Of a DNA stretch of 64,000 nt, positions 894-47,748 are shown in pieces (position 1 is the stretch's first letter; each line of letters opens with the position of its first letter). The notes below the pieces were generated by a model. That model saw nothing but the letters and a program-made list of their open reading frames with translations, ran no database searches and was not told the origin of the DNA. Position numbers and translations under genes: made by a program. Source of the DNA: an uncultured Gammaproteobacteria bacterium (GTDB lineage: Bacteria; Pseudomonadota; Gammaproteobacteria; JACCXJ01); the NCBI GenBank assembly GCA_963764725.1, contig CAVXTM010000004.1:12095-76094 (forward strand), in the 5' to 3' direction.

Positions 894-3800
894 TCACTGT
901 TCGCCTTCCGATACACTTAACCCGCGCTCCGCTTCAAGTAACGCTGTTACTTCATCTGGCGAGAGTTGTTTCAATTCCTCCAGTATTCGAGCCACTTCAG
1001 CCGGGTCTTCCTGATCGACCTGCGCCGCGGCGATCGCCGCACTGAGGTCGGTGATCGTCGGCGCATCGAAGAGGATCCGGAGCGGCAGTTGCACGTGAAA
1101 GGCTTGCTGGATCCGAAAGGCAAGCAGGGTGAGTAAAAGGGAGTGCCCACCCAACTCGAAAAAGTTGTCGCGGATCCCGATCCCCTCGAGGCCGAGTAAC
1201 CCGCGCCAGATCTCGGCAAGCTCTTCCTCGACCGGGGTGCGGGGCGCGACAAAGGGGCTCTCTAAATCGGGCCTAGCCTGTTCGGGCGCCGGCAGCGCCC
1301 GCCGATCCACCTTCCCACTCGGTGTCAGCGGCAGCGCCTCGAGTACGACGAAGCTCGCGGGCACCATATACTCGGGTAGCTTTTCCTTGAGGAAGCTCCG
1401 CATCTCATTGGTTGCAGGGGCTGTCTCCGGCGTGACAACCACGTAAGCCACCAGACGCTGGTCGCCGGACCCTTCCTGACGGGCCGCCACTACCTCGCGT
1501 ATCCCCGGATGCTGGCTGAGCACCGCCTCGATCTCGCCCAACTCGATGCGGTAACCACGAATCTTCACTTGATGGTCGCTGCGACCCAGGTAGACGAGCT
1601 CACCATGGGATAAGTAACGGGCCAGATCACCGGTCTTGTACAGCCGAGCCCCGAACTCCTGGCTGAAGGGATTCGGAATGAACCTTTCAGCGCTGAGTTC
1701 TGGGCGGTTCAAATAGCCCCGGCTTAGCCCCTGCCCAGCCACATAGATTTCACCCGGCACCCCGATCGGGACTGGTTGCAGGTGCTCGTCCAGCAGATAA
1801 AGCTGCAAATCAGGGAGCGGCCGGCCAATGGGACTTCCTTTTTCCTGGCTCAGGTCGGCCAGCTTCAGTGGGCGAGAGGTGACATGGACGGTAGTTTCAG
1901 TGATCCCGTACATGTTGACTAACCGAGGTCGCTCATCGCCGTGGCGCTCAAACCAGGGCCGGAGCCGGTTGACTTCAATCGCCTCGCCGCCGAAGATGAC
2001 GAGGCGCAGCGCCAGTTCTCCGACGCGATCCGGCCCGCTTTCCTCCTCGACCCGCATCAGTTGGTAGAAGGCTGAGGGGGTCTGATTGAGGACCGTCACC
2101 TGCTCCTGGCACAACAGTTCATAGAAGGAGTCAGGCGAGCGAGTCATCCAGCCGGGCACCACCACCAACCGCCCGCCGTAGATCAGCGCCCCCCACATCT
2201 CCCAGACCGAGAAGTCGAAGGAGTAGGAGTGAAAGAGGGTCCACACATCTTCCTGGTCGAAATGAAACCAGGGGTCAGTGGCCGCGAACAGACGCGTGAC
2301 ATTGTGGTGGCTGACTAAGACTCCCTTCGGGCTCCCCGTCGAGCCGGAGGTATAGATGACATAGGCGAGGTTTCCAGCCGTCGCACCGCTGGCAGGATTT
2401 TCCTCACTCTGGTTGTCCGTGATTTCCCGGTCTGCGTCCAGACAAACGGTCTTTGCCCGGTGCTGGGGAAGAGAGCAAACCAAGCGCTCCTGGGTTAACA
2501 GCACAGGCGCTTGGGTATCTTCTAACATGAAGGCCAGCCGATCTTTTGGATAGTCCGGATCCAGCGGCACGTAGGCTCCCCCGGCCTTGAGGATACCCAG
2601 CAGCCCGACCACCAGCTCCAACGAGCGCTCCAGGCAAATCCCCACCAGCACCTCGGGACCTACTCCCAGCTTCTGCAGGTGATGCGCCAGTTGATTGGCC
2701 CGGCGGTTTAGGTCCCCATAGGCCAGCCGCTCTCCCTCGAACTCGACTGCCACCCTCTCAGGCGTCCGTTCGACCTGTGTTTCGAACAGTTCGTGGATGC
2801 ACTGGTCCGTCGAGTAATCCGCCTTGGTCTGGTTCCACTCCACAAGCAATCGATGCCGTTCGGCGGCACTCAAGAGCGGTAAGTCAGAGATGCGCTGCTC
2901 GGGATTTGCGGTGATGCCTTCCAGCAGAGTCTGGAAATGTATCAGCATTCGCGTCATCGTCCCTGCATCGAACAGATCCAAGTTGTACGTGAACAGACAA
3001 CACAGCCCTTCCGGTTTCTCGACCACGTCGAGGAACAAATCTACTATGGCCACGCCGTTGTCGGTCTCGACATCTTCAATCCTCAGGCCCTGCACCTCGA
3101 TGGCATGTTTGGGGATATTTCTGAAGTTGAGCATCACCTGAAAGAACGGCGTCTGACTCAGATTCCGCGCTGGCTGGAGCTCTTCCACCAGCTTCTCGAA
3201 CGGCAGGTCCTGGTGGGCATAAGCGCTTAAGGCCGTCTGGCGCACCCGGTCCAGCAGCTCCTGGAACGTGGGATCGCCCGACAGATCGGTGCGCAGCACC
3301 AGCGTATTGATGAAGCACCCGATCAACTCCTCCGTCTCCACTCGCAGGCGACCGTTGGTGGGCGCGCCCACCACGATGTCCTCCTGCCCCGTATAGCGAG
3401 AGAGCAGCGTCTGGAAACCCGCTAGCAGCGTCATAAATAGGGTGACGCCCTCCTCACGGCTCAGCGCCTTGAGTCTCTCGGTCAGGCCTTTGGAGAGGAC
3501 GAGCGATTGCCCTGCGCCCCGATAGGTGCGGCTGGCCGGTCGCGGATGATCAGTGGGCAGCCCCAGCGCCGAGAGGGCGCCGGCCAACTGTTGCTTCCAG
3601 TAAGCGAGCTGCCGCTCGAGGAGCTTGCCCTGGAACCACTGCCGCTGCCAGGCCGCGAAGTCGCCGTACTGGATGGATAATTCTGGGAGGGAAGAGGCGC
3701 GCCCAGTAGTGAAAGCGTCGTAGAGCGTGCCGAGCTCTCGCAGGAGCACGCCCATCGACCAGCCGTCGAAGACGATATGGTGGATCGTCAGCAGCAGCAC

Positions 3801-4319
3801 ATGCTCCTGTTCGCCCAATCGCAGCAGGAGGGCCCGCAAGTGCGGTCCCTGGGCCAAATCAAAGGGTCGCCGGGCCTCTTCGTTCACCAACTGCCACGCC
3901 TGTGCCGTCCGCTCAGACTCCGGTAGATGTTGAAGGTCCACTACGGGAAAGCTGAGCGGGCGCGCCGGGGCAATCACCTGGCACGGGCTGCCATCGACCG
4001 AGACGAAGGTGGTGCGCAACACCTCGTGGCGGCGGATAATTTCAGTCAGACTTCGCTCCAGCGCCTCCACGTCGAGAGCACCTGTCAGGCGAATATGCGA
4101 GGGGCGGTTGTAGACAGAGCTGCCGGGCTCCAACTGGTCGAAGAACCACAGTCGCTGTTGGGCGAAGGAGAGAGGAATACGGCTCTGCTCTGGCCGCCGC
4201 GCAATTCCCTTCGGCCTCCCATCGCCCAGGTTTTTCTGCCGCAGCCGCTTCTCCCAGAGCGCCTGCTTTGCGCTTGAGAGCCTGGACCCGTGCTGTGAGC
4301 TCTCGTCGTTTCTCGACAT
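894..4319 (-). CDS. Single-module NRPS (C-A-PCP), A domain predicted Thr-specific, no TE
   Basis: C domain LSFAQQRLWF and HHIVFDGWS; A domain YTSGSTGSPKG, FDFSVWE, NMYGITETTVHVT, YKTGDL; PCP DNFFELGGHSL. Confidence 0.95.
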   Translation of the reverse strand: MSRNDESSQHGSRLSSAKQALWEKRLRQKNLGDGRPKGIARRPEQSRIPLSFAQQRLWFFDQLEPGSSVYNRPSHIRLTGALDVEALERSLTEIIRRHEVLRTTFVSVDGSPCQVIAPARPLSFPVVDLQHLPESERTAQAWQLVNEEARRPFDLAQGPHLRALLLRLGEQEHVLLLTIHHIVFDGWSMGVLLRELGTLYDAFTTGRASSLPELSIQYGDFAAWQRQWFQGKLLERQLAYWKQQLAGALSALGLPTDHPRPASRTYRGAGQSLVLSKGLTERLKALSREEGVTLFMTLLAGFQTLLSRYTGQEDIVVGAPTNGRLRVETEELIGCFINTLVLRTDLSGDPTFQELLDRVRQTALSAYAHQDLPFEKLVEELQPARNLSQTPFFQVMLNFRNIPKHAIEVQGLRIEDVETDNGVAIVDLFLDVVEKPEGLCCLFTYNLDLFDAGTMTRMLIHFQTLLEGITANPEQRISDLPLLSAAERHRLLVEWNQTKADYSTDQCIHELFETQVERTPERVAVEFEGERLAYGDLNRRANQLAHHLQKLGVGPEVLVGICLERSLELVVGLLGILKAGGAYVPLDPDYPKDRLAFMLEDTQAPVLLTQERLVCSLPQHRAKTVCLDADREITDNQSEENPASGATAGNLAYVIYTSGSTGSPKGVLVSHHNVTRLFAATDPWFHFDQEDVWTLFHSYSFDFSVWEMWGALIYGGRLVVVPGWMTRSPDSFYELLCQEQVTVLNQTPSAFYQLMRVEEESGPDRVGELALRLVIFGGEAIEVNRLRPWFERHGDERPRLVNMYGITETTVHVTSRPLKLADLSQEKGSPIGRPLPDLQLYLLDEHLQPVPIGVPGEIYVAGQGLSRGYLNRPELSAERFIPNPFSQEFGARLYKTGDLARYLSHGELVYLGRSDHQVKIRGYRIELGEIEAVLSQHPGIREVVAARQEGSGDQRLVAYVVVTPETAPATNEMRSFLKEKLPEYMVPASFVVLEALPLTPSGKVDRRALPAPEQARPDLESPFVAPRTPVEEELAEIWRGLLGLEGIGIRDNFFELGGHSLLLTLLAFRIQQAFHVQLPLRILFDAPTITDLSAAIAAAQVDQEDPAEVARILEELKQLSPDEVTALLEAERGLSVSEGEQ

Positions 4320-24659: not shown

Positions 24660-27401
24660 GTGAGCACGGCGGTGGACGTCGGATCCGAGGTCGAAGTCAC
24701 GCCTTGGCATGCCCTGCCTGCGGAGGAAGTGGCTCACCGGCTGGACACCAAGGCCGAGTCGGGTCTCGACGCCGGCGAAGTCTCGCGCCGCCTCGAGAAG
24801 TACGGCCGCAACCGCTTGCCGGAAGGGGTGAAGCGGGGCCCCTGCTGCGATTCCTGCTGCAGTTCAACAACATCCTCGTCTACGTCCTGCTCGCCGCCGG
24901 GTTCGTCAAGCTGATGCTCGGCCTGTGGCTCGACGCGTCGGTCATCCTGGGCGTCGTCATCCTCAACGCGCTGCTCGGGTTCATCCAGGAGGGAAGGGCG
25001 GAGAAGGCCCTGGATTCGATCCGCAACATGCTCTCCGCGGAGGCCCGGACCGTGCGCGACGGGGAGACCCGGCTGATCCCGGCCGAGGAGCTGGTGCCGG
25101 GCGACGTCGTGCTCCTCGAATCGGGCGACCGGATCCCGGCGGACCTTCGCCTCGTCGACGTGAAGAACCTGCGGACGGAAGAGGCGGCGCTCACGGGCGA
25201 GTCGGTTCCCGCGGACAAGTCCACGGACGCCGTGGCCGCCAACGCGACGGTCGGCGATCGCGACGGCATGGCCTTTTCCGGAACGCTGGTGGTGTCCGGT
25301 CGCGCGACGGGAGTCGTCGTCGGCACGGGGAGCGACACCGAGCTGGGTCGCATCAACCAGATGCTCGCCGCCGTCAGCCCGCTCGAGACGCCGCTGCTGC
25401 GGCAGATCAAGAAGTTCGGCTACGCGATCACCGCGGTCATCGGCGTGGTGAGCGTTCTGGTGTTCGCCTACGGCAGATGGGTGCAGGGCATGCCGTTCGT
25501 GGAGCTCTTCCAGGCGGTGGTCAGCATCGCGGTGTCGATCATTCCGGAGGGGCTGCCCGCGCTCATCACCATCACGCTCGCGATCGGCGTGCAGCGCATG
25601 GCCCAACGCAACGCCATCATCCGGCGCCTGCCGGCCGTGGAGACGCTGGGCTCGGTCTCGCGGATCTGCTCCGACAAGACGGGCACGCTCACGCTGATGG
25701 AGATGATGGTGGTCTCGGCCGTCACGGCCGATTCGGCGTACACGGTGACCGGCGACGGCTACGCGCCCGAGGGCGAGGTCCTGAAGGATGGAAAGCCCGC
25801 CGGCGAGGATCCCGTGCTGAGGCTCATGGGGCGCGTCTCCATGCTCTGCAACGATGCGGAGCTGCGCCAGGAGGAAGGCGTCTGGAAGGTCGAGGGCGAT
25901 CCGACCGAGGGGGCGCTCTACCCGTTCGCATCCAAGCTCGGGCTCGAACGGCAGGCCGAACAGACGGCGTATCCCCGGATCGACGCCATCCCGTTCGAAT
26001 CGGAGCACCGGTTCATGGCGACGCTGCACAAGGACGGGCGGCGGCAAGCAGATGCTCCTGGTCAAAGGCGCGCCGGAAGTCATCCTCGAGCACTGCGATC
26101 GGCAGGCGACCAGGAGCGGACAGCCGGCGCCGATCGATCGCGACCATTGGATGAAGGCGTCGGACCAGCTCGCGGCGCAGGGCGAGCGCGTGCTGGCCCT
26201 CGCGTGGCTGGAGAATCCGGGCCTCGAGGCGGGCAACCTCGGTCCGGCGGACCTGCCGAAGAACCTGGTCCTGCTCGGCCTGATCGGGCTGCTCGATCCG
26301 CCGCGCAAGGAGGCGATCGAGGCGGTGAAGGAATGCCACGCCGGCGGCATCCGCGTGACGATGATCACCGGCGATCACAAGATCACCGCGGCGGCGATCG
26401 CCAAGATGCTCGGCATCGGCGACGGCAAGACGGCGATCACCGGGGCCGAGATCGAGGAGATGGACACCGCCACGCTGCAGGAGCGGGTCCGCGACGTCGA
26501 CGTGTTCGCGCGCTCGAGCCCCGAGCACAAGCTGCGTCTCGTGAAGGCGATCCAGGCGAACAGGCAGATCGTGGCGATGACCGGCGACGGGGTGAACGAC
26601 GCGCCGGCCCTCAAGAAGGCCGACATCGGCGTCGCGATGGGGATCAAGGGCACCGAGGTCACCAAGGAGGCGGCCGAGATGGTGCTCGCCGACGACAACT
26701 TCGCCTCGATCACGGCGGCCGTCCGCGAAGGGCGCACGGTCTACAACAACATCGAGAAGGCGATCCTCTTCATGCTGCCGACGAACGTCGCCCAGGGGCT
26801 GGTCATCCTGGTGGCGATCTTCGTGGGCTTCACCGCGCCGATCACCGCGCCGCAGATCCTGTGGGTCAACATGGTGACGTCGGTCGCGCTCGGGCTCGTC
26901 ATCTCCTTCGAGCCGCACGAGCTCGACGTCATGCAGCGGCCGCCGCGCGCGGTCGATCGTCCGATCCTGGACGGCTTCGGGATCTGGCGCGTCGTCTTCG
27001 TCGGTCTGGCGCTGCTCGCGCTCACCTTGTGGGCGTTCTTCTGGATGAAGTCCCAGGACGCATCGGACGAGCTCGCCCGGGCGGTCGCGGTGAACGCGCT
27101 GGTGATCGGCCAGATCTTCTATCTGCTCAACAGCCGCTACAAGCTGGACTCGTCGCTGTCCCTCAAGGCGCATCTCGGCAACCAGTACCTGCCGCTGGGC
27201 ATCGGCGCGGTGGTGATCCTGCAGCTCCTGTTCACCTATGCGCCTCCGCTCCAGGCTCTGTTCGACACCGAGGCGGTACCGCTCCGGATCTGGCCGTGGC
27301 TCTTCCTCGGAGGCCTGCTGTTCTTCCTCGTCGTGGAGGTCGAGAAGCTGGTGATTCGCGCCGCCCGCGGTTCCCCGCGCCGCGACCCGGCCCCGGCGTA
27401 G
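24660..27401 (+). CDS. Cation-transporting P-type ATPase (P2A-like), frameshifts near 24840 and 26035
   Basis: TGES, PEGL, DKTGT, KGAPE, TGDGVNDAPALKKADIG spread over three frames. Confidence 0.92.
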
Positions 27402-27425
27402 ACGGAAGGACGCGAGGCGACACCG

Positions 27426-28217
27426 ATGGCGATCGACGAGCCGATGAAGCGAGCGGAATACGAGAAGGCGCTGCGCGAGCTGCAGGTCGAGCTGTGCGCG
27501 CTGCAGGACTGGGTCAAGGAGCACGGTCAGCGGGTGGTCGTGGTCTTCGAGGGGCGCGACGCCGCCGGCAAAGGCGGCACGATCAAGGCCATCACCGAGC
27601 GCGTGAGCCCGCGCGTCTTCCGCGTGGTGGCGCTGCCGGCGCCTTCCGACCGCGAGAGGTCGCAGATCTACATGCAGCGCTTCCTCGAGCACTTCCCGGC
27701 CGCGGGCGAGATCGTGATATTCGACCGCAGCTGGTACAACCGGGCCGGGGTCGAGTACGTGATGGGATTCTGCTCGAAGGCCCAGCACCGTCGCTTCCTC
27801 GTGATCTGCCCCGAGTTCGAGAGGTATGTCGTCGACGACGGCATCCTGCTGATCAAGTACTGGCTCGAGGTGAGCGAGGGGGAGCAGAAGCGCCGCTTCG
27901 AGGCGCGCATCACCGATCCGCTGCGCCAGTGGAAGCTGAGTCCGACGGATCTGTGCTCGCGGAGCCGGTGGTTCGAGTATTCGCGGGCGCGCGACACGAT
28001 GCTCGAGGCCACGGATACGGAGTTCGCGCCTTGGTACATCGTCCCCTCGGACGACAAGCGGCGCGCGCGGCTCAACTGCATCAGTCACCTGCTCGGCCTG
28101 ATCCCTTACAAGAAGGTGCCCCGCAAGAAGGTGAAGCTTCCCGCGCGCTCGAGAAAGGCCGCCTACGACGACCAGGCGACGCTCGAGAGCAGGCGTTTCG
28201 TTCCCGCGAAGTACTAG
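27426..28217 (+). CDS. ppk2: Polyphosphate kinase 2
   Basis: FEGRDAAGKGG, FDRSWYNRAGVE, WKLSP. Confidence 0.95.
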   Translation: MAIDEPMKRAEYEKALRELQVELCALQDWVKEHGQRVVVVFEGRDAAGKGGTIKAITERVSPRVFRVVALPAPSDRERSQIYMQRFLEHFPAAGEIVIFDRSWYNRAGVEYVMGFCSKAQHRRFLVICPEFERYVVDDGILLIKYWLEVSEGEQKRRFEARITDPLRQWKLSPTDLCSRSRWFEYSRARDTMLEATDTEFAPWYIVPSDDKRRARLNCISHLLGLIPYKKVPRKKVKLPARSRKAAYDDQATLESRRFVPAKY

Positions 28218-28228
28218 GAGCGCGCTCG

Positions 28229-29796
28229 GTGGACGCCTCCTCAGCCGTCGTCACGCTCCTGGGTGGGCTCGGCATGTTCCTGCTCGGGATCCATCACCTC
28301 ACCGAGGGCCTGAAGGATCTCGCGGGCGACTCGCTGCGCCGCGCGCTCCAGAGGCTCGTCTCCGGGCCGCTCAGCGCCATCGCGTCGGGCGTGGTCTTCA
28401 CCGTCCTGATCCAGTCCTCGACCGCGGCCATCCTCACCGTCATCGGCTTCGTCAGCGCGGGACTGATGACGTTCGCGCAGGCGATCGGCGTGATCATGGG
28501 CGCGACGCTCGGCACGACCTCGACGCCGTGGATGGTGGCGTTCTTCGGCTTTCGCGTGAGGATCGCGAGCTTCGCCATGCCCATCCTCGGTGTCGGCGCC
28601 CTGCTGTGGCTCGTCGCCAAGGGCCGGACGCGATCGCTCGGCGCGCTGCTCGCGGGCTTCGGGCTGCTCTTCACCGGGATCGACTACATGCAGACGGGGA
28701 TGGAGGGCGTCTCGTGGAACTTCGAGCGTTCACCGGCCCCGGCTCGATGTGGATCCTCGCCGGGATCGGGATCGTCATGACGATCGTCATGCAGAGCTCG
28801 AGCGCAGCCGCTGCGACGACGCTCGTGGCCTTGAATGCGGGCGCGCTGACCTTCGAGCAGGGCTGCGCGCTGATCGTCGGGCAGAGCATCGGAACGACCG
28901 GCGACGACCGCGCTGGTGATGATCGGCGCGGGCCTCGCGGTGCGGCGCGCGGCGCTGGCGCACATCCTCTTCAGCTCGATCGCCGGCGTCCTCGCTATGG
29001 TGTTGCTCGGGCCGCTCACGGCAGCCGCGGACTGGGTGGGCTCCCGGCTCGACGATCCCGATGGCGTGCTGGCTCTCGCGGCATTCAGCAGCATCTTCAA
29101 GCTCGCGGGCGTCGTCGCGTTCTATCCGTGGCTCGATCACTTCGCGCGGTTCATCTCTCGGATCTCCGGGAACAGGCAGCGAGTCGGCCGTCAGCCGCCT
29201 CGAGCCGACCCTCGCCGAAGCAGGAGGAGCGGTCGCGCTCGAGGCCGCCTGGCGGGCGATCCTGGAGGTCGCGCATGGAGCAGTCGATGCAGTCCGCCGC
29301 CGGCTCGCCGGCGCATCCGTCAACGTACGACCCGCCGAGCGAGGCGGTCCAGCAGATCGAGCACTTCCTCGAATCGCTTTCGCTGGAAACCACCGATCTG
29401 GGCACGATCGGGCCCCGCCTGGTCCGGCTCGTCCACGCGCTCGATCACCTGACGCAGCTGCACGACGACCTCACGCGCATTCCGCCGGCCGTGAGTGGCT
29501 GGCAGCCGCCGGCCAGCTTCGAGGCGGGCTCGCGGGCGCTCGCTGCGTGGCTCGACGCCACCCGGGACCCCGAGGCGGTGCCCGCTCCGGCCACCTTCGA
29601 GGCCGTCGAACGCGCCTCGCAACAGATCGGTGTCGAGTGCAAGGCCGCCCGCGAGAAGATGCTGGAGGACGTCGCTTTGCAACGCACGCCGGCGGCGACG
29701 GCCCGCGCGGCTCTCGACACGCTCGCATGGGCCGACGGCGCCTTCTACCACGCATCGGCTCTGGCCGAATCGCTGAGAATCGCCTCGACCGGATAG
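28229..29796 (+). CDS. Na/Pi cotransporter family protein with several frameshifts
   Basis: GGLGMFLLGI, two QSS(T/S)A repeats, G-(T/S)-(L/I)GTT motifs across frames. Confidence 0.85.
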
Positions 29797-35567: not shown

Positions 35568-35795
35568 ATGACCGTGGCAACCCTGAGTTCAAAATCGCAA
35601 ATCGTATTACCGGCAGAGATGCGAAAGCGGCTTGGCATCCAGGCCGGGGATCGCCTGCTAATCGAGGCGGACGCAGACAGAATTGTCATCCGCAAGGCCC
35701 CTCATTCTTTTACGACTGCCCTAGAAAGCTGCAGTGACGAACTCTGGTGTGGTTACGCAGAAGTCCTCAAGAAGGAGCGGGCTGATTGGGACTGA
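35568..35795 (+). CDS. AbrB/MazE-type antitoxin
   Basis: LSSKSQIVLPAEMRKRLGIQAGDRL; overlaps the PIN gene. Confidence 0.9.
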   Translation: MTVATLSSKSQIVLPAEMRKRLGIQAGDRLLIEADADRIVIRKAPHSFTTALESCSDELWCGYAEVLKKERADWD

Positions 35796-36220
35796 AGATC
35801 CCGGCGGGCAGCCGCGTCGCGTTCGATACGCCTGTTCTGATCTATTTCCTGGAGCACCACCCGCGGTTTTACCAGGAGGTACAGCAGCTCTTCGAGCGCA
35901 TGGAGGGAGGCGATATTCACGGCGTGCTTTCCAGTCTGGCACTAACCGAACTTCTGGTGCCTGCCTTCCGTGTGAGTCAAGCCGACAAGGCCCAGGCTGT
36001 GCTCAGCCTGCTATCCGGATTTCCGAACTTGAACATCTTGGATGTCACGACCTCAATCGCTGTTACAGCGGCACGACTGCGCGGCGAATATAAACTCAAT
36101 ACCCCGGATGCGCTGCACGCCGCCACAGCTCTGCACGCCAAGGCGAATGCTCTGATCACCAATGACAGGGATTTGCTGCGCCTTGAGTCGGCTGGCTTGC
36201 GGGTAGCCTTGCTGGAGTAG
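35786..36220 (+). CDS. PIN-domain (VapC-like) toxin
   Basis: [29 protein letters not shown]. Confidence 0.9.
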
Positions 36221-41977: not shown

Positions 41978-43111
41978 ATGTCACAAGAAACGCTCGTGGA
42001 TGATCGGAGTTACCGAGTGGGGGCAGTGCGCAACATCGCGTTCGTCGCCTTTCCCGATTTTACGATGCTCGATGTGTGTGGCCCGTACGAGGTGTTCGCG
42101 GGTGCGGATGTCTGGTTGCGCAAGACCGGCAGGATAGACCGGCCTGTGTACCATCTGGACGTCATCGCGCCGCAAGCCGGACCGCTCCGGACCTCCTCGG
42201 GGCTCCAGATCGTCGCGGATCATGCCTACCCAGAGTTCGATCAGCCGATCGATACGCTGGTCGTGGCGGGCGGCGTGGAAGGCATGGAGCGGGCGTGTGC
42301 CGATGCGGCGTTGATCTCATGGATCAAGGAGGCCGCGGCACGGGCACGTAGGGTCGCATCGGTCTGCTCCGGCGCCTTTCTGCTTGCCGAGAGCGGTCTC
42401 TTAGATGGTCGCCGGGCGACCACGCACTGGGCTTTCAGCAAGCGGCTGGCTAACGCCTACCCGTCGGTCTGCGTCGAGGCGGATCAGATCTTTATCCGGG
42501 ACGGTCATATCTACACCTCGGGCGGGATCACCGCCGGTATCGATCTGGCCTTGGCCTTGGTGGAAGAGGATCACGGCCCCGACGCCGCACTGCTGGTCGC
42601 GCGCCTCCTGGTGATGTTCCTGAGGCGCCCGGGAAGCCAATCGCAATTCAACACCTATCTGGGCTCGGGGCCCGACAGCCGGCACGATAGTCGAGAGTTA
42701 CACGCTGAGATCCCGGGTCAGCTGGCTTCCCGTCTGGGTAGCGAGGCGCTCTCGTACTTGAGCACAAAGACCCACAGCCGGCCTGATATGCGTGAGTTGC
42801 AGGCCTGGATCCTGGCTCATCCGGATGCCGATCTGAGCATCGAGGCGCTCTCGGAGCGGACGGCCATGAGCCCGCGAAACTTCGCCCGGCTTTTCGTGAC
42901 GGAGACGGGCATGACGCCAGCCAAGTTCGTGGAACAGGCGCGCCTCGAGGCAGCACGCTGCAAGTTGGAGCAGACGGCTCTCCCCGTCGAGGCCATCGCC
43001 GAGCGCTGCGGGTTCGGTGATCCCGAACGCATGCGCCGGAGCTTCCGCCGGATGCTCCGGGTCAGCCCGCAGGACTATCGCGCGCGCTTCAAGTCTACGG
43101 TATTGCACTGA
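41978..43111 (+). CDS. GlxA-family (DJ-1/PfpI plus AraC) regulator 1, with an internal 33 aa duplication
   Basis: SVCSGAFLLA, ATTHW, TSGGITAGIDL, MSPRNFARLF, CGFGDPERMRR. Confidence 0.92.
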   Translation: MSQETLVDDRSYRVGAVRNIAFVAFPDFTMLDVCGPYEVFAGADVWLRKTGRIDRPVYHLDVIAPQAGPLRTSSGLQIVADHAYPEFDQPIDTLVVAGGVEGMERACADAALISWIKEAAARARRVASVCSGAFLLAESGLLDGRRATTHWAFSKRLANAYPSVCVEADQIFIRDGHIYTSGGITAGIDLALALVEEDHGPDAALLVARLLVMFLRRPGSQSQFNTYLGSGPDSRHDSRELHAEIPGQLASRLGSEALSYLSTKTHSRPDMRELQAWILAHPDADLSIEALSERTAMSPRNFARLFVTETGMTPAKFVEQARLEAARCKLEQTALPVEAIAERCGFGDPERMRRSFRRMLRVSPQDYRARFKSTVLH

Positions 43112-43382
43112 GGGATTGCTGATGGGCGGCTACTCGCCGGTCCTTCGCCCTGTTTGGAACAGCAGATCGATATGCACAGAGCCATCGCTACCACGCTTTC
43201 CGAGCTTCGCCGTGAGTGGGCTTCATGGATCTCTCTTTGGAGCTTCCTCGTGCACCTCAACGATCTGGACTTCTACAAAGAGCTAGATGAGCAACTCGAG
43301 ATTTGCATTGCGCTATCGGCCTCGCGCCGCGAGGGTGTGCATGGGAAACGATCATGGCCAATTGAATGCGTCGGCGAGAGAT

Positions 43383-43399
43383 CTGTGAACTTTTCACAG
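43383..43399. promoter_or_regulatory. Palindrome CTGTGAA-N3-TTCACAG upstream of the hypX remnant
   Basis: Perfect inverted repeat; a related box at 45040-45056 lies almost the same distance from the intact hypX start. Confidence 0.6.
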
Positions 43400-43460
43400 C
43401 AATCGGGGAAATATAGGGTAACGGTAGTCGCGGCATCATCTACACATTGAGGGGCACATT

Positions 43461-43592
43461 ATGAACATTTTATTTTTTACCTCAGCGCACAATAGCCTAA
43501 GTCAGCGCTTGTTGATCGAGCTTACGGACCGAGGCCATCAAGTTTCGGTCGCTTGGGCCACGAGTGATGAGGCGCTGTTAAACGCGGTCGCA
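43461..43592 (+). pseudogene. hypX: 5' remnant of hypX/hoxX
   Basis: MNILFFTSAHNSLSQRLLIELTDRGHQVSVAWATSD; DNA near-identical to 45117-45247. Confidence 0.9.
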
Positions 43593-43621
43593 CTCTACCA
43601 GTGTCCTTTCGGAGGAAAATC

Positions 43622-43927
43622 ATGAAACCACTTATTACACCATGGCGCCAGCGAATTTATACAAGCGGAAAAGATCCAGTAAGCCTCTCGTGCATAAGCT
43701 TCGAGAGTGCGGTGGATGTTTCGGTAGCTCTTAATGACCACCAGGTTATCACTTTGAAAAAAGCGCAATGTGTCCGAGAACAGATCGGGCAGGCCGTGGA
43801 GAAGCTCGATATCGAAGTCCTGCTTGATCCGAATATGCCTCATCTGGGCAGCATGGAGGTGTTGGCTAGAATCAAGCGGGATCTAAGTCGCAATCTGCAT
43901 TCTATGACGCCCGTGAAAGTGGCGTAA
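43622..43927 (+). pseudogene. Degenerate receiver-domain-like ORF
   Basis: VLLDPNMPHLGSMEVLARIK resembles the REC D-x-x-MP motif; the rest is not recognisable. Confidence 0.4.
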
Positions 43928-43939
43928 AGGAAGGATCGC

Positions 43940-44968
43940 TTGTTGCAAAAACCCCTTATTCCCTATGCGCTGACTCACGACCGGAAAGTGAGACGTATCG
44001 GTATCGTCGCATTCCCCGGGGTTGAGGTCTTGGACATTAGCGGGCCAATGGAAGTGTTTTCTTTCGCCAGCCTAGGTTTACAGCGAGCGGGCGTCACCAG
44101 GGAAGCCGTTTATACGTTCGAAGTGCTGGCGGAAAAGCCGGGGCCCGTTAAGACCTTATCCGGCTTGCAGATCATAGCCGATAGAGCCTACTGCGATATA
44201 ACGAACGGTATCGATACCTTGTTGATTCCCGGCGGTGATATGGCGTCTGTGTTGGGCGATCGCTTATTGGTAGATTGGATACGCGCCATGGCACCGCGGG
44301 TCAGAAGGCTCGCTTCGATCTGCACCGGGGCTTTTCTGCTAGCAGAAAGCGGCCTCCTCGACGGTCGCCAAGCTACCACCCATTGGGACTTTTGTAACCA
44401 GTTAGCCTGCAAATATCCGTCGATTACGGTCGATGCGGACCGGATTTTTGTACAGGACGATTTCATTTTTACGTCGGCAGGTATCACCTCCGGCATCGAT
44501 CTCGCGTTAGCGATGGTGGAAGAAGACTGGGGACGGGAGCTGGCGTTATATGTCGCACGCTTCTTGGTGGTTTTTCTCAAGCGGCCAGGCGGTCAATCTC
44601 AATTCAGTGCCTATCTGACCAGTGAGCCGGCTAGACATCCGGATCTACGCGACATGCAGGCCTGGATCATGGACCATCCCACAGAGGATTTCCGGATCGA
44701 AGCGATCGCTGAGCGCATGGCCATGAGCCCACGCAATTTCGCCAGAGTTTTCTTAACGGAAACCGGCATGACCCCGGCTAAATTCGTGGAAAGGGCGCGT
44801 ATCGATGCTGCGCGCTATTACTTAGAGAGCACCGAGCTGCCGATTGAAACCGTGGCAGACAAATCAGGTTTTCGCGACCCTGAACGCATGCGCCGGACGT
44901 TTCATCGCTTGCTCGGCGTGAGTGCCCAAGATTACCGCGCTCGATTCAAGTCGACGACTAGGCATTGA
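43940..44968 (+). CDS. GlxA-family (DJ-1/PfpI plus AraC) regulator 2
   Basis: SICTGAFLLA, ATTHW, TSAGITSGIDL, RPGGQSQFS; paralogue of 41978-43111. Confidence 0.93.
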   Translation: MLQKPLIPYALTHDRKVRRIGIVAFPGVEVLDISGPMEVFSFASLGLQRAGVTREAVYTFEVLAEKPGPVKTLSGLQIIADRAYCDITNGIDTLLIPGGDMASVLGDRLLVDWIRAMAPRVRRLASICTGAFLLAESGLLDGRQATTHWDFCNQLACKYPSITVDADRIFVQDDFIFTSAGITSGIDLALAMVEEDWGRELALYVARFLVVFLKRPGGQSQFSAYLTSEPARHPDLRDMQAWIMDHPTEDFRIEAIAERMAMSPRNFARVFLTETGMTPAKFVERARIDAARYYLESTELPIETVADKSGFRDPERMRRTFHRLLGVSAQDYRARFKSTTRH

Positions 44969-45039
44969 AATGACGTTACACGGAAATCGAAAGCTACGGC
45001 ACGCTTTCGTCACGGTCACGCGCGCGATCGGATTGGGAA

Positions 45040-45056
45040 ACGTGAATTTGTCACAG
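45040..45056. promoter_or_regulatory. Box aCGTGAA-N3-GTCACAG upstream of hypX
   Basis: Matches the 43383-43399 palindrome with conserved spacing to the ATG. Confidence 0.55.
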
Positions 45057-45116
45057 AAGTTTTGCGAGAAAAGAATTATTTTCAGATGGCGCTAATAAGC
45101 GCTGGAGGGGCTAATT

Positions 45117-46850
45117 ATGAAAATCCTATTTATTACTTCTGCCCACAACAGTCTGAGTCAACGCCTGTTGATCGAGCTTACGGACCGAGGCCATCAAGTT
45201 TCGGTCGCTTTGGCCACGAGTGATGGCGCGATGCTAACCGCGGTCGCGGAGCATGCGCCCGATCTCATCATTGCGCCGATGCTAAAAGTCGCTGTTCCGG
45301 AGGCGATCTGGTCTCGGTATAAATGTCTCATCGTTCATCCCGGCATCAAGGGCGATCGGGGACCTTCCTCGCTCGATTGGGCTATTGCGAGCGGGCAAGA
45401 GAGTTGGGGTGTCACCATCTTGGAGGCGGCGAAGGAGTTCGATGCGGGCCCAATCTGGGCGACCCACGAGTTCCCGATCGAAGGCCAGTCGCTTACCAAG
45501 AGCAGTCTCTACCGTCACCAAGTGACCGAAGCGGCGGTGCGTGGTGTGATCGAGGCCGTGGCTAAGTTCGAGTCGGGTGAGTTCCAACCCGAGCTGCTCG
45601 ATTACAGCAAGCCCGGTGTCCGCGGTTGTTTGCGCCCACCGATGCGCCAGCCGGATCGCAGCATCGACTGGATGCGGGACCCGACAGAGGTCATCGCGCG
45701 AAAGATCCGAGCCGCCGATAGCGCCCCCGGGGTGTTGGACACCTTGTTCGGCAAGGCGTATTACCTCTACGGCGCACACGAGGAAGACCGCATCAAGGGA
45801 GCGCCCGGCGAGATCCTGGCTCAGCGGCATGGGGCCATCTGCCGCGGCACCGTCGATGGAGCCATCTGGATCACCCACCTCAAAGCCAAGGACCACGGAC
45901 CCTTCGCCGGGATCAAATTGCCGGCCATTCAGGTGCTGGGAGAATTCTTCCACACCCCCACCGCGATGCTTTCAATTGGGGCGCCGATAGATTTCTGCAC
46001 CTTCCGCGAGATCCGCTACGCCGAGAAGGACCAGGTCGGGTATCTGTACTTCGATTTTTACAACGGCGCGATGAGCACCGAGCAGTGCTACCGGCTACGC
46101 GACGCGTTCCTGGCGGCGCGGGCCCGCCCCACCAAGGCGATCGTGCTCTTTGGGGGGCGCGACTTCTGGTCCAATGGGATCCACCTCAATGTGATCGAGG
46201 CAGCTCCCGATCCCGCCATGGAGTCCTGGCGCAACATCAACGCCATCGATGACTTTATCTATGAGATCCTCAACACGATGTCACATCTGGTGATCGCGGG
46301 TTTACGCGGCAATGCCGGCGCAGGAGGCGCGATGCTTGCCCTCGCGGCCGATTATGTCTATGCGCGCCGGGGCGTGGTGCTCAACCCTCACTACAAAAAC
46401 ATGGGGGGACTCTATGGCTCGGAATACCATACCTACACCCTACCGCGACGGGTCGGCCCGGCGCAGGCGGCCGAGCTAACCGATTGCTGTCGGCCCATAG
46501 GCACCCAGGCGGCCAAAGCAATTGACTTCCTTGATGGCGCCTTCGGCGACAGCAGCGACGAATTCGAGCAGGAGATGATGCGAAGGGCGACGGGAATGGT
46601 GCAGGATCCGTGCATCTGGCGCCTACTGCGTGAGAAGCACGAGAAGCGGCTCGCGGGCCACTGCATCAAGCCCCTCGCGGCCTACCGCGCCGAAGAGCTC
46701 AAGAAGATGCGCACCAATTTCTTCGGTCCGGACCCCGCGTATCACGAGGCGCGACAGAGGTTTGTGTATAAGGGCGCCCCACTCTCGCGTGTTCCAGAGA
46801 AGACGGCGCGCCAGCCCGTTGCCATCAGGTCGTTGCGGGCGATGGCATAG
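45117..46850 (+). CDS. hypX: HypX/HoxX (formyltransferase plus enoyl-CoA hydratase-like domain, CO-forming)
   Basis: NSLSQRL, HPGIKGDRGPSSLDWA, FDAGPIWA, FYNGAMST, WSNGIHLN, GNAGAGG, NPHYKNMGGLYGSEY. Confidence 0.93.
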   Translation: MKILFITSAHNSLSQRLLIELTDRGHQVSVALATSDGAMLTAVAEHAPDLIIAPMLKVAVPEAIWSRYKCLIVHPGIKGDRGPSSLDWAIASGQESWGVTILEAAKEFDAGPIWATHEFPIEGQSLTKSSLYRHQVTEAAVRGVIEAVAKFESGEFQPELLDYSKPGVRGCLRPPMRQPDRSIDWMRDPTEVIARKIRAADSAPGVLDTLFGKAYYLYGAHEEDRIKGAPGEILAQRHGAICRGTVDGAIWITHLKAKDHGPFAGIKLPAIQVLGEFFHTPTAMLSIGAPIDFCTFREIRYAEKDQVGYLYFDFYNGAMSTEQCYRLRDAFLAARARPTKAIVLFGGRDFWSNGIHLNVIEAAPDPAMESWRNINAIDDFIYEILNTMSHLVIAGLRGNAGAGGAMLALAADYVYARRGVVLNPHYKNMGGLYGSEYHTYTLPRRVGPAQAAELTDCCRPIGTQAAKAIDFLDGAFGDSSDEFEQEMMRRATGMVQDPCIWRLLREKHEKRLAGHCIKPLAAYRAEELKKMRTNFFGPDPAYHEARQRFVYKGAPLSRVPEKTARQPVAIRSLRAMA

Positions 46851-46860
46851 AGCCGAAGAT

Positions 46861-47748
46861 ATGGCTGCCATCGTTATAAACGGCAATGCCATCGCGGCAG
46901 CGGTACGCCGGGAATGGAAGGAGCGGGCAGAGGCACTGAAACGACGCGGCGTCCTGCCGGCTCTGGCGGTGGTCATCGTCGGAGACAATCTAGCGTCCAA
47001 GATCTATGTGCGTAACAAGGTCAAAGCGTGCTACGAAGTGGGGGTGCATTCCGAGGTGCACGAGTTGCCTACCGACGTCGGCGAGGACATGGTCCTGGCC
47101 CAGATACGGCGCCTCAATCACAACCCTGATATTCACGGCATCCTGGTGCAGTTACCACTACCGCCGCAGCTCGACAGGGACAAGGTCCTCGCCACCGTGT
47201 CGGCGGACAAGGACGTCAACGGGTTTCATGTTCACAACCTGGGCACCTTGGTAACCGGGAACGCGCTGGTCCCGCCGTGCACGCCATACGGCATTCAGTG
47301 TCTTCTCGATCACATGCAGATCCCCATAGAGGGCCAGAACGCCGTGGTGGTGGGACGCAGCACGATCGTCGGCAAACCGATGGCCCTGATGCTCCTTCAG
47401 AAGGGAGCCACGGTCAGCATCTGCACCTCGAAGACCAGGGACCTCGCGACGTACACGCGCCTTGCGGACATCCTCGTGGTGGCGGCGGGTAAGCCGAATC
47501 TCATCACCGCGGCCATGGTGAAGGAAGGTGCTGCGGTGATCGATGTCGGGATCAATCGCGCACCGGATGGCCGTCTGGTGGGTGACGTAGATTTCGATGC
47601 GGTCCAAGAGAACGCTGGTTACATCACGCCCGTACCGGGTGGGGTCGGTCCGATGACGATCGCGATGCTCATCGCCAATACGGTGCGTGCGGCCGAGCGG
47701 CTGGCGGACGAAGCGCAGACGCAAAGAGGTCAAGTCTCGACATTTTAA
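46861..47748 (+). CDS. folD: Methylene-THF dehydrogenase/cyclohydrolase
   Basis: YVRNK, HGILVQLPLP, KDVNGFH, PCTP, GRSTIVGKP, TPVPGGVGPMT; starts 10 bp after hypX. Confidence 0.93.
   Translation: MAAIVINGNAIAAAVRREWKERAEALKRRGVLPALAVVIVGDNLASKIYVRNKVKACYEVGVHSEVHELPTDVGEDMVLAQIRRLNHNPDIHGILVQLPLPPQLDRDKVLATVSADKDVNGFHVHNLGTLVTGNALVPPCTPYGIQCLLDHMQIPIEGQNAVVVGRSTIVGKPMALMLLQKGATVSICTSKTRDLATYTRLADILVVAAGKPNLITAAMVKEGAAVIDVGINRAPDGRLVGDVDFDAVQENAGYITPVPGGVGPMTIAMLIANTVRAAERLADEAQTQRGQVSTF

Follow-up and report, generated by a model that had tools for sequence, protein, structure and literature searches.

What use could a bacterium make of HypX, an enzyme that forms carbon monoxide (CO), if it has no hydrogenase to mature? 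To our knowledge, HypX is known solely as the aerobic supplier of the CO ligand of [NiFe]-hydrogenases. The question is raised by a locus in a stretch of 64,000 nucleotides (nt), hereafter the window, which is part of contig C4 of the genome of an uncultured gammaproteobacterium (G000; 4.21 Mb in 19 contigs, 96.9% complete). There, two genes for DJ-1/AraC regulators (reg1 and reg2), hypX and folD follow one another on the same strand. The answer that we propose, and that we hold to be about evenly balanced between right and wrong, is that the locus encodes a regulated enzyme converting 10-formyl-tetrahydrofolate (10-formyl-THF) to CO, which is uncoupled from the hyp genes in methanotrophs and is here without a hydrogenase client.

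The listing of open reading frames (ORFs) and the Pfam and NCBIfam scans placed all four genes where the initial annotation had put them, and the Pfam and structure matches are far beyond chance. The hypX product has the domains Formyl_trans_N (2.7e-10), Formyl_trans_C (1.1e-11) and ECH_1 (4.1e-16), which is the architecture that defines HypX: the N- and C-terminal formyltransferase domains plus an enoyl-CoA hydratase-like domain in a protein of about 560-620 amino acids (aa). Residues 1-560 align with chain residues 21-569 of Aquifex aeolicus HypX (6j0p_A, E = 9.1e-169). Excerpts of the description of that enzyme (Muraki et al. 2019, PMC6802093) propose His74, Asp80, Asp109, Tyr416 and Glu426 as catalytic (A. 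aeolicus numbering). The equivalents in the window protein are H74, D80, D109, Y426 and E436, all five invariant in the 76 aligned HypX sequences, so that the gene is full-length with its catalytic motifs intact, as first described. Compared with the HypX/HoxX proteins of Aquifex aeolicus (PDB 6j0p) and Cupriavidus necator, which are aerobic CO synthases for the [NiFe] cofactor, the window HypX is 50-55% identical over its full length and shares both the two-domain architecture and the five catalytic residues. It differs from them in lying away from any hyp cluster, in being accompanied by a DJ-1/AraC regulator of its own and in coming from a distinct clade whose hosts bear pmoA.

No hyp, hox or hup family was found in Pfam scans of 8 and of 46 ORFs of the window, in agreement with the initial annotation. 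Profile searches of the whole genome gave no match to HypC or HypD, which at 96.9% completeness is no proof of absence, and HypE and HypF gave only weak, sub-cut-off matches to paralogs, as they do in hydrogenase-free control genomes. The NiFe large-subunit family PF00374, however, has matches at 508-509 kb of contig C16. They belong to a sulfhydrogenase-like [NiFe] operon with many frameshifts, which occupies the last 8 kb of that contig (C16:505000-513185; L006:11000-19186) and which we take to be of Group 3b. Besides the small subunit and the large subunit, which shows RICGIC and DPCISCAAH motifs, the operon encodes an Fe-S subunit, an NAD-binding/2Fe-2S subunit and a maturation protease. 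At least three frame changes interrupt the large subunit by itself, and several others the small subunit. This contig end has a G+C content of 71-75%, compared with 50-65% for the 10 kb before it, and may represent foreign DNA undergoing decay, a poorly sequenced patch or a chimeric join. It also holds an N-terminal fragment of PhoX and a fragment of glyceraldehyde-3-phosphate dehydrogenase. No maturation machinery for these structural genes was found in G000, and hence no combination of hypCDEF with a [NiFe]-hydrogenase was detected in this genome. The view of the locus as free of hydrogenase and hyp genes thus stands at genome level for HypC, HypD, HypE and HypF, but not for the structural genes, which are present in frameshifted form on C16.

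The distribution of these genes was followed in a family set of 15 genomes, G000 included, and the family-level statements draw largely on unpublished genomes (G001, G002, G005, G007, G008, G009, G010, G012 and G014; G numbers denote genomes and L numbers loci). Two further entries, G061 and G062, duplicate the matches of G007 and G003, respectively, down to the contig coordinates, and each pair was counted once. Full-length HypX occurs in G000, G003 (90% identity), G007 (87%), G009 (86%, another genus) and G001 (70%), the last at a different locus with no regulator or folD within 17 kb. G003 and G011 have both HypD and the NiFe large subunit; beyond these two, G006 has a fragment of HypD and G000 the broken large-subunit copy. 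HypF is absent from G001 and G009. Among the five HypX carriers only G003 has the hydrogenase machinery, while G011 has the machinery and no HypX. The strict covariation of HypX with hydrogenases, which the initial annotation had considered, is therefore not seen in the family, the distributions of HypX, HypD and the large subunit being different.

Outside the family, a survey of related loci (80 listed among 418 confirmed candidates, to which the locus counts refer; the majority of the surveyed genomes are fragmented metagenome-assembled genomes, MAGs) separates two kinds of hypX. Burkholderiales, Chromatiales, Thiodiazotropha and others account for 29 loci in which hypD precedes hypX by 1-2.5 kb, and these HypX are 50-56% identical to that of the window. 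In 34 loci hypX is immediately preceded by a DJ-1/AraC regulator gene, and the flank is free of hypD; the hosts are Methylocella, Methylocapsa, Methylocystis, Methylomicrobium and other Methylococcales. These 34 are part of the 52 loci without hypD, window included, that entered the ORF-cluster analysis, and the regulator is on the same strand as hypX with a median gap of 153 nt. One regulator plus hypX is the conserved unit. A HypX tree (quick IQ-TREE, LG+G4, 76 HypX rows, arbitrarily rooted on the Aquifex row and omitting seven split or short rows, L059, L066, L067, L073, L076, L093 and L100) divides the hypD-linked from the regulator-linked rows by one branch with an SH-aLRT (approximate likelihood-ratio test) support of 98, with one change each. 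The HypX of the window, G003, G007 and G009 nest with a support of 100 in a group of 33 rows that is otherwise mostly alphaproteobacterial, the Methylococcales falling outside it, and this nesting points to a probable transfer among methanotrophs.

The hosts of the two kinds also differ. Genes of the pmoA family are present in 41 of the 52 listed genomes with stand-alone HypX and in none of the 30 with hypD-linked HypX, counts in which kin are not independent and which represent roughly four lineages. G000 itself has three AmoA/PmoA-family loci (C18:234387-235094, C16:488849-489547 and C3:34673-35361, one of them split in two), so its bacterium is a copper-monooxygenase oxidiser of methane or of ammonia or alkanes. 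Two other arrangements were noted in the regulator-linked loci. In Methylocystis parvus (L060: 4404-7434, 11956-12777) mch, a RimK-like ligase gene and a CitG-like gene, neighbours from the tetrahydromethanopterin (H4MPT) pathway, stand upstream of the regulator-hypX pair at a distance of no more than 3 kb, and a gene for a YgfZ/GcvT-like folate-binding protein follows the pair. In five Methylocapsa-type loci (L051:8909-9730, L054, L057, L076 and L100) a gene for a DUF2189 integral membrane protein is located between regulator and hypX.

Among the 50 listed genomes without hypD near hypX, 30 have HypD elsewhere. PF00374 has no match in 12 of the 50 and in three more gives only 26-34 bits over the first 66-74 model positions, matches that were taken to be NuoD of complex I. 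HypF was tested in the 15 genomes without HypD or large subunit and was found in one, G063. This leaves 14 of the 50 carriers without HypD, HypF or a strong match to the NiFe large subunit, and 12 of the 14 have pmoA. One of them is an isolate, Methylocapsa palsarum NE2 (L051), which 'did not oxidize H2' according to the consulted portion of Schmider et al. 2024 (PMC11519548). In the excerpted supplement of the same paper, the BLAST table lists a hoxX gene for M. palsarum, and HoxX of M. gorgona is listed at 'Low' confidence, an entry with no bearing on expression. As a baseline, 400 genomes sampled evenly across the phylum were searched, with HypX called at E <= 1e-60: 21 have HypX, and 20 of these 21 have HypD, usually a few kb away.

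The gene also bears the mark of selection. Ratios of nonsynonymous to synonymous substitutions (dN/dS; Nei-Gojobori, pairwise) are 0.08-0.27 for hypX across the stand-alone lineages. Comparisons within the set of window, G007 and G009 give 0.19-0.27, those within the trio L065/L070/L072, which is free of hydrogenase, 0.22-0.27 (dS up to 0.26), and L048-L049 gives 0.11; four pairs from genomes that carry hydrogenase have 0.12-0.19. The branch of M. palsarum has about 0.13, against 0.12 and 0.18 for its sisters, by a three-point estimate from pairwise values. hypX is thus under purifying selection.

The second gene of the unit, folD, starts 10 nt downstream of the hypX stop, as the initial annotation had noted. 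Its product has the catalytic domain PF00763 (6.9e-38) and the NAD(P)-binding domain PF02882 (1.1e-67), and scores 428.4 with the curated model NF010786 (cut-off 421), which places it in the FolD family. A promoter and terminator scan of the locus, with counts at chance level, found no terminator-like site in the hypX-folD gap; promoter-like sites numbered 3 in the scanned region, not above the 2.3 expected by chance. It had been suggested that an enzyme is here paired with the supply of its substrate, with a search for a second folD as a check. No second FolD lies above the cut-off and no Fch-type cyclohydrolase was found in G000, so the folD of the window is not a spare, dedicated copy. FolD is the only detected link between 10-formyl-THF and methylene-THF in this genome, which also encodes the formate-THF ligase FtfL, the methenyl-H4MPT cyclohydrolase Mch and one MtdA/B-type gene; since FtfL is present, 10-formyl-THF can be made from formate.

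In the family folD is associated with hypX. Only three of the 15 genomes, G000, G003 and G009, have a FolD that exceeds the Pfam cut-off, and a fragment is left in G007, where the gene is cut after codon 89; in G003 it consists of two overlapping pieces, pointing to a frameshift. All four genomes carry the hypX type that is 86-90% identical to that of the window. Within the family folD is an accessory gene, present solely beside this hypX type, and the linkage, in four genomes of two genera, is not unique to G000. Compared with housekeeping FolD, the protein has the same two domains, but it is not universal in the family and its gene directly follows hypX. Its nearest named relative is the gammaproteobacterial FolD of Methylohalomonas lacus (74% identity). 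Given this affinity and the alphaproteobacterial affinity of hypX, the pair was probably assembled in the present lineage and not imported together. Elsewhere, a divergent FolD-family gene is found 219 nt after hypX in an alphaproteobacterial MAG that has a hydrogenase (L064).

These data have to be weighed against a more conservative explanation, which we consider quite possible while leaning against it: that this is an ordinary HypX serving a [NiFe]-hydrogenase encoded elsewhere, or a relic that has not yet decayed. Assembly gaps or recent loss would account for the missing genes, the regulator would time the CO supply to aerobic conditions, and folD would be a chance neighbour. Several observations weigh on its side and against hydrogenase independence. 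The 30 of 50 clade carriers with HypD are well suited by the canonical role. HypD and the large subunit are both present in the closest relative, G003, where HypD lies on two tiny contig ends, so a hyp cluster in G000 could be unassembled too. Because G003 still has its hydrogenase, the loss in the family would be recent, and dN/dS, as wherever such loss is recent, would mostly record earlier history, which makes it a weak argument. The finding of HypF in G063 means that this genome is merely incomplete, so that markers can go undetected in MAGs for reasons of assembly. Hydrogenase structural genes, with a maturation protease, are present in G000, and because the conserved segments on C16 have no in-frame stops and keep their motifs, the frameshifts there could be sequencing errors. 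Decay is visible as well: hypX is split by frameshift in two of the 14 hydrogenase-free genomes (L066 and L073), as it is in four genomes with hydrogenase (L059, L076, L100 and L093), and in G007, where hypX is whole, folD is truncated and only the first 23 and the last 26 codons of the regulator are left. The catalytic residues are identical in the two HypX clades, with only two alignment positions fixed differently between them, and from the sequences nothing indicates a different chemistry. Finally, as the only FolD of a genome in which no Fch was found, folD may be present for ordinary one-carbon (C1) metabolism.

The conservative explanation is less easily reconciled with other results. 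Three independent markers are missing in the 14 carriers, and also in G000, G001 and G009, which are 97-98% complete. The isolate M. palsarum NE2 is without the markers and is reported not to oxidise H2, and dN/dS is not raised on its branch. In the baseline sample, HypX is accompanied by HypD almost without exception. As for a chance neighbour, folD tracks the hypX type in the family, and the folD-family gene of L064 follows hypX independently.

A different alternative concerns the reaction itself. The N-terminal domain could exchange formyl groups between CoA and THF, with FolD it would carry formyl units between the methylene-THF pool and some source or sink of formyl-CoA, and decarbonylation would be a side reaction. 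The half-reactions do take place in separate domains joined by a CoA cavity, according to the excerpted text of Muraki 2019 (PMC6802093), the genes are separated by only the 10 nt given above, and FtfL, Mch, an MtdA/B-type gene and pmoA mark the host as a C1 specialist. We nevertheless regard such formyl-CoA handling as quite improbable: all 76 aligned sequences keep the decarbonylase residues Y426 and E436, a 2025 review states, in the portion available, that formyl-CoA stays bound to HypX, and no producer or consumer of formyl-CoA was seen beside the loci, although no search was aimed at one.

Returning to a regulated CO-forming enzyme without a hydrogenase client, the following course of events is proposed. 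The DJ-1/AraC regulator, here reg2 with its Cys128, would control transcription of hypX-folD, as its adjacency suggests. 10-Formyl-THF would come from formate through FtfL or from methylene-THF through FolD; both enzymes are present, and the direction of flux is our assumption. HypX would transfer the formyl group to bound CoA and decarbonylate the formyl-CoA to CO, a chemistry that has been demonstrated for homologs and that is expected here from the 50-55% identity and the intact catalytic residues. As no HypC, HypD, HypE or HypF is detectable, the CO would not be passed to the HypCD scaffold and would be released for a different use, of which a role as signal or as metal-site ligand seems the most plausible. 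With regard to origin, hypX would derive from an alphaproteobacterial methanotroph lineage, with reg2 as a later insertion of Methylococcales type. The step from formyl-CoA to CO has an estimated free-energy change of roughly -15 kJ/mol at 1 atm CO and would be far more favourable at 0.1 ppm. HypX as a route of atmospheric CO uptake in M. palsarum was also considered, and was rejected on this estimate.

Both regulators have a DJ-1_PfpI domain followed by HTH_18/HTH_AraC, the arrangement of the DJ-1/PfpI-AraC class. They share the N-terminal DJ-1 domain and the AraC double helix-turn-helix with FtrA, but reg1 and reg2 score 233.9 and 242.4 against a cut-off of 425; with GbdR, of the same architecture, the scores are 125.6 and 118.9 against 480. 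Falling below these NCBIfam equivalog cut-offs, they belong instead to the hypX-linked group, which is marked by an invariant cysteine: Cys128 of reg2, at the nucleophile elbow of the DJ-1 domain, is conserved in 29 of 29 hypX-linked regulators. This residue fits a mode of sensing through a reactive cysteine, and the best PDB match of the DJ-1 domain of reg2 is the isonitrile hydratase InhA (1.6e-23). No shared operator emerged from 21 regulator-hypX spacers of 13-1155 nt, in which no 7-mer occurs in more than six.

The initial annotation had treated the two regulators as part of the system. Both are present, but the pair is a local accident (Table 1). The family-native regulator is reg1, which has 70% identity with the one regulator that precedes hypX in G003. 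It differs from that 342-aa protein by 33 extra codons, the product of an in-frame tandem duplication of 99 nt (42672-42754 and 42771-42853; 83-nt copies, 73% alike). Downstream of reg1 the sequence is collinear with the regulator-hypX spacer of G003 up to position 43591 (88% over 485 nt), and its last 143 nt are the putative relic of the original hypX start: they form a direct repeat, 86% identical, with 45105-45247, tblastn finds HypX residues 1-44 there at 86%, and the genome search recovered the same piece at C4:55555-55689. The spacer that follows has no blastn or tblastn match in the 80 listed loci or elsewhere in the genome, and for the reg2-hypX spacer before 45105 no similarity to relatives was found. 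The regulator that adjoins hypX, reg2, is 54% identical to reg1, and its nearest counterpart among the loci listed is the regulator gene linked to hypX in a MAG of the Methylococcales (L115; 74% nucleotide identity). Taken together, reg2, the hypX 5' relic and the unmatched spacers identify the two-regulator layout as a probable recent replacement event, in which reg2 appears to be a xenologous insertion peculiar to this genome, arriving with the 143-nt duplicate of hypX. Metagenome contigs with joints from 43347 to 45220/45228, and a lower summed depth over 43476-45051, give a weak hint, with likeness set at 85%, that related populations may be without the reg2 insert.

Table 1. Features of the regulator-hypX-folD locus (positions in the window)
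Feature	Position	Strand	Description
reg1	41978-43111	+	family-native DJ-1/AraC regulator, 377 aa; DJ-1_PfpI 7.5e-27, HTH_18 1.4e-23
ancestral reg1-hypX intergenic region	43112-43448	+	collinear with the G003 spacer
hypX 5'-end relic (putative)	43449-43591	+	143 nt: leader of 12 nt plus codons 1-44
inserted-cassette spacer	43592-43939	+	348 nt
reg2	43940-44968	+	inserted DJ-1/AraC regulator, 342 aa; DJ-1_PfpI 1.2e-24, HTH_18 5.9e-21
reg2-hypX intergenic region	44969-45116	+	one sigma-70-like site, 45048-45076
hypX	45117-46850	+	577 aa; predicted N10-formyl-THF:CoA formyltransferase fused to formyl-CoA decarbonylase; stop codon 46848-46850
folD	46861-47748	+	295 aa; methylene-THF dehydrogenase/methenyl-THF cyclohydrolase; ATG at 46861, stop at 47748

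Partial extra copies of hypX occur in two genomes. G000 has a piece of 49 residues at C18:531970-532116 (51% identity), and G003 has partial copies on contigs C314 and C185 (L027 and L028; 74-94% identity, with stops). They suggest either repeated rearrangement of the gene or strain mixtures in the MAGs.

Other genes follow hypX elsewhere in the clade. Among the Methylococcales loci listed, hypX is followed on the same strand by genes for a receiver-like protein of 288 aa (10 loci), a histidine kinase with MHYT and PAS domains (9) and a hybrid kinase (8). These genes span 11822-16653 in L099 and 11748-16446 in L106, the two loci in which the MHYT-PAS kinase was confirmed with Pfam; the other seven kinases were assigned by cluster membership. 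According to the excerpted source (PMC11347149), the MHYT domain of CoxC from Afipia carboxidovorans mediates a copper-dependent response to CO. The resemblance to CoxC consists in an MHYT domain in the kinase two genes after hypX, in nine Methylococcales loci of the same HypX clade. The hypX-linked proteins are, however, kinases and not LytTR repressors, and do not stand beside cox genes; CO sensing by them is putative. In G000 the single MHYT protein (C12:274590-275300, in an open frame of 978 aa) is encoded on a different contig from hypX; its gene lies about 40 kb from the C1 genes mch/mtd of the same contig. Copper proteins appear in a similar position. In three Beijerinckiaceae loci hypX is followed by nirK, scoring above the TIGR02376 cut-off (L066:12581-13900, L068:5348-6526 and L074:12161-13279), and in G009 a cupredoxin-NirK-like protein is encoded after folD (L023:7533-9272), with a score of 182.7 that is below the cut-off of 296.3. 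At the window locus the 5' neighbours are hsp20 and a cbpA-type dnaJ, and the 3' neighbours are copB and copA in convergent orientation; the latter two occupy the position of the nirK-type genes in those loci. A more far-reaching version of the proposal, which we think unlikely, is that the HypX of aerobic methanotrophs is a regulated, hydrogenase-independent source of free intracellular CO, with the DJ-1/AraC protein as its switch and copper-dependent MHYT sensors, or ligation to copper or haem, as its outlet, in a signalling system fed by C1 metabolism.

Three other features of the window are unrelated to the hypX locus. An ORF of 1358 aa (24704-29793; G+C content 0.68) joins a P-type ATPase to a Na/Pi-cotransporter repeat, and the ORF after it has a second such repeat in a different frame; this looks like a frameshift or read-through in another high-G+C patch. 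A single nonribosomal peptide synthetase module (C-A-T) is encoded at 897-4319, and a PIN-domain toxin gene at 35786-36217.

In a literature search that did not extend to the majority of subscription journals, nor to the Lenz group's primary HypX papers, nothing was found on hydrogenase-free HypX or on HypX of methanotrophs. The chemistry is of a known kind; what is new lies in its context, in its regulation and in its likely separation from any hydrogenase. One practical consequence is that the annotation 'hydrogenase maturation protein' in MAGs of methanotrophs, including those that oxidise atmospheric methane, is not proof of H2 metabolism. This HypX clade has its own regulator, is found largely in methane oxidisers and is often kept under purifying selection without hydrogenase machinery, properties that together suggest a second physiological use of enzymatic CO, or of formyl-CoA, in aerobic bacteria. 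The cultured carrier M. palsarum NE2, which has no hydrogenase markers and is reported not to oxidise H2, makes this idea directly testable.

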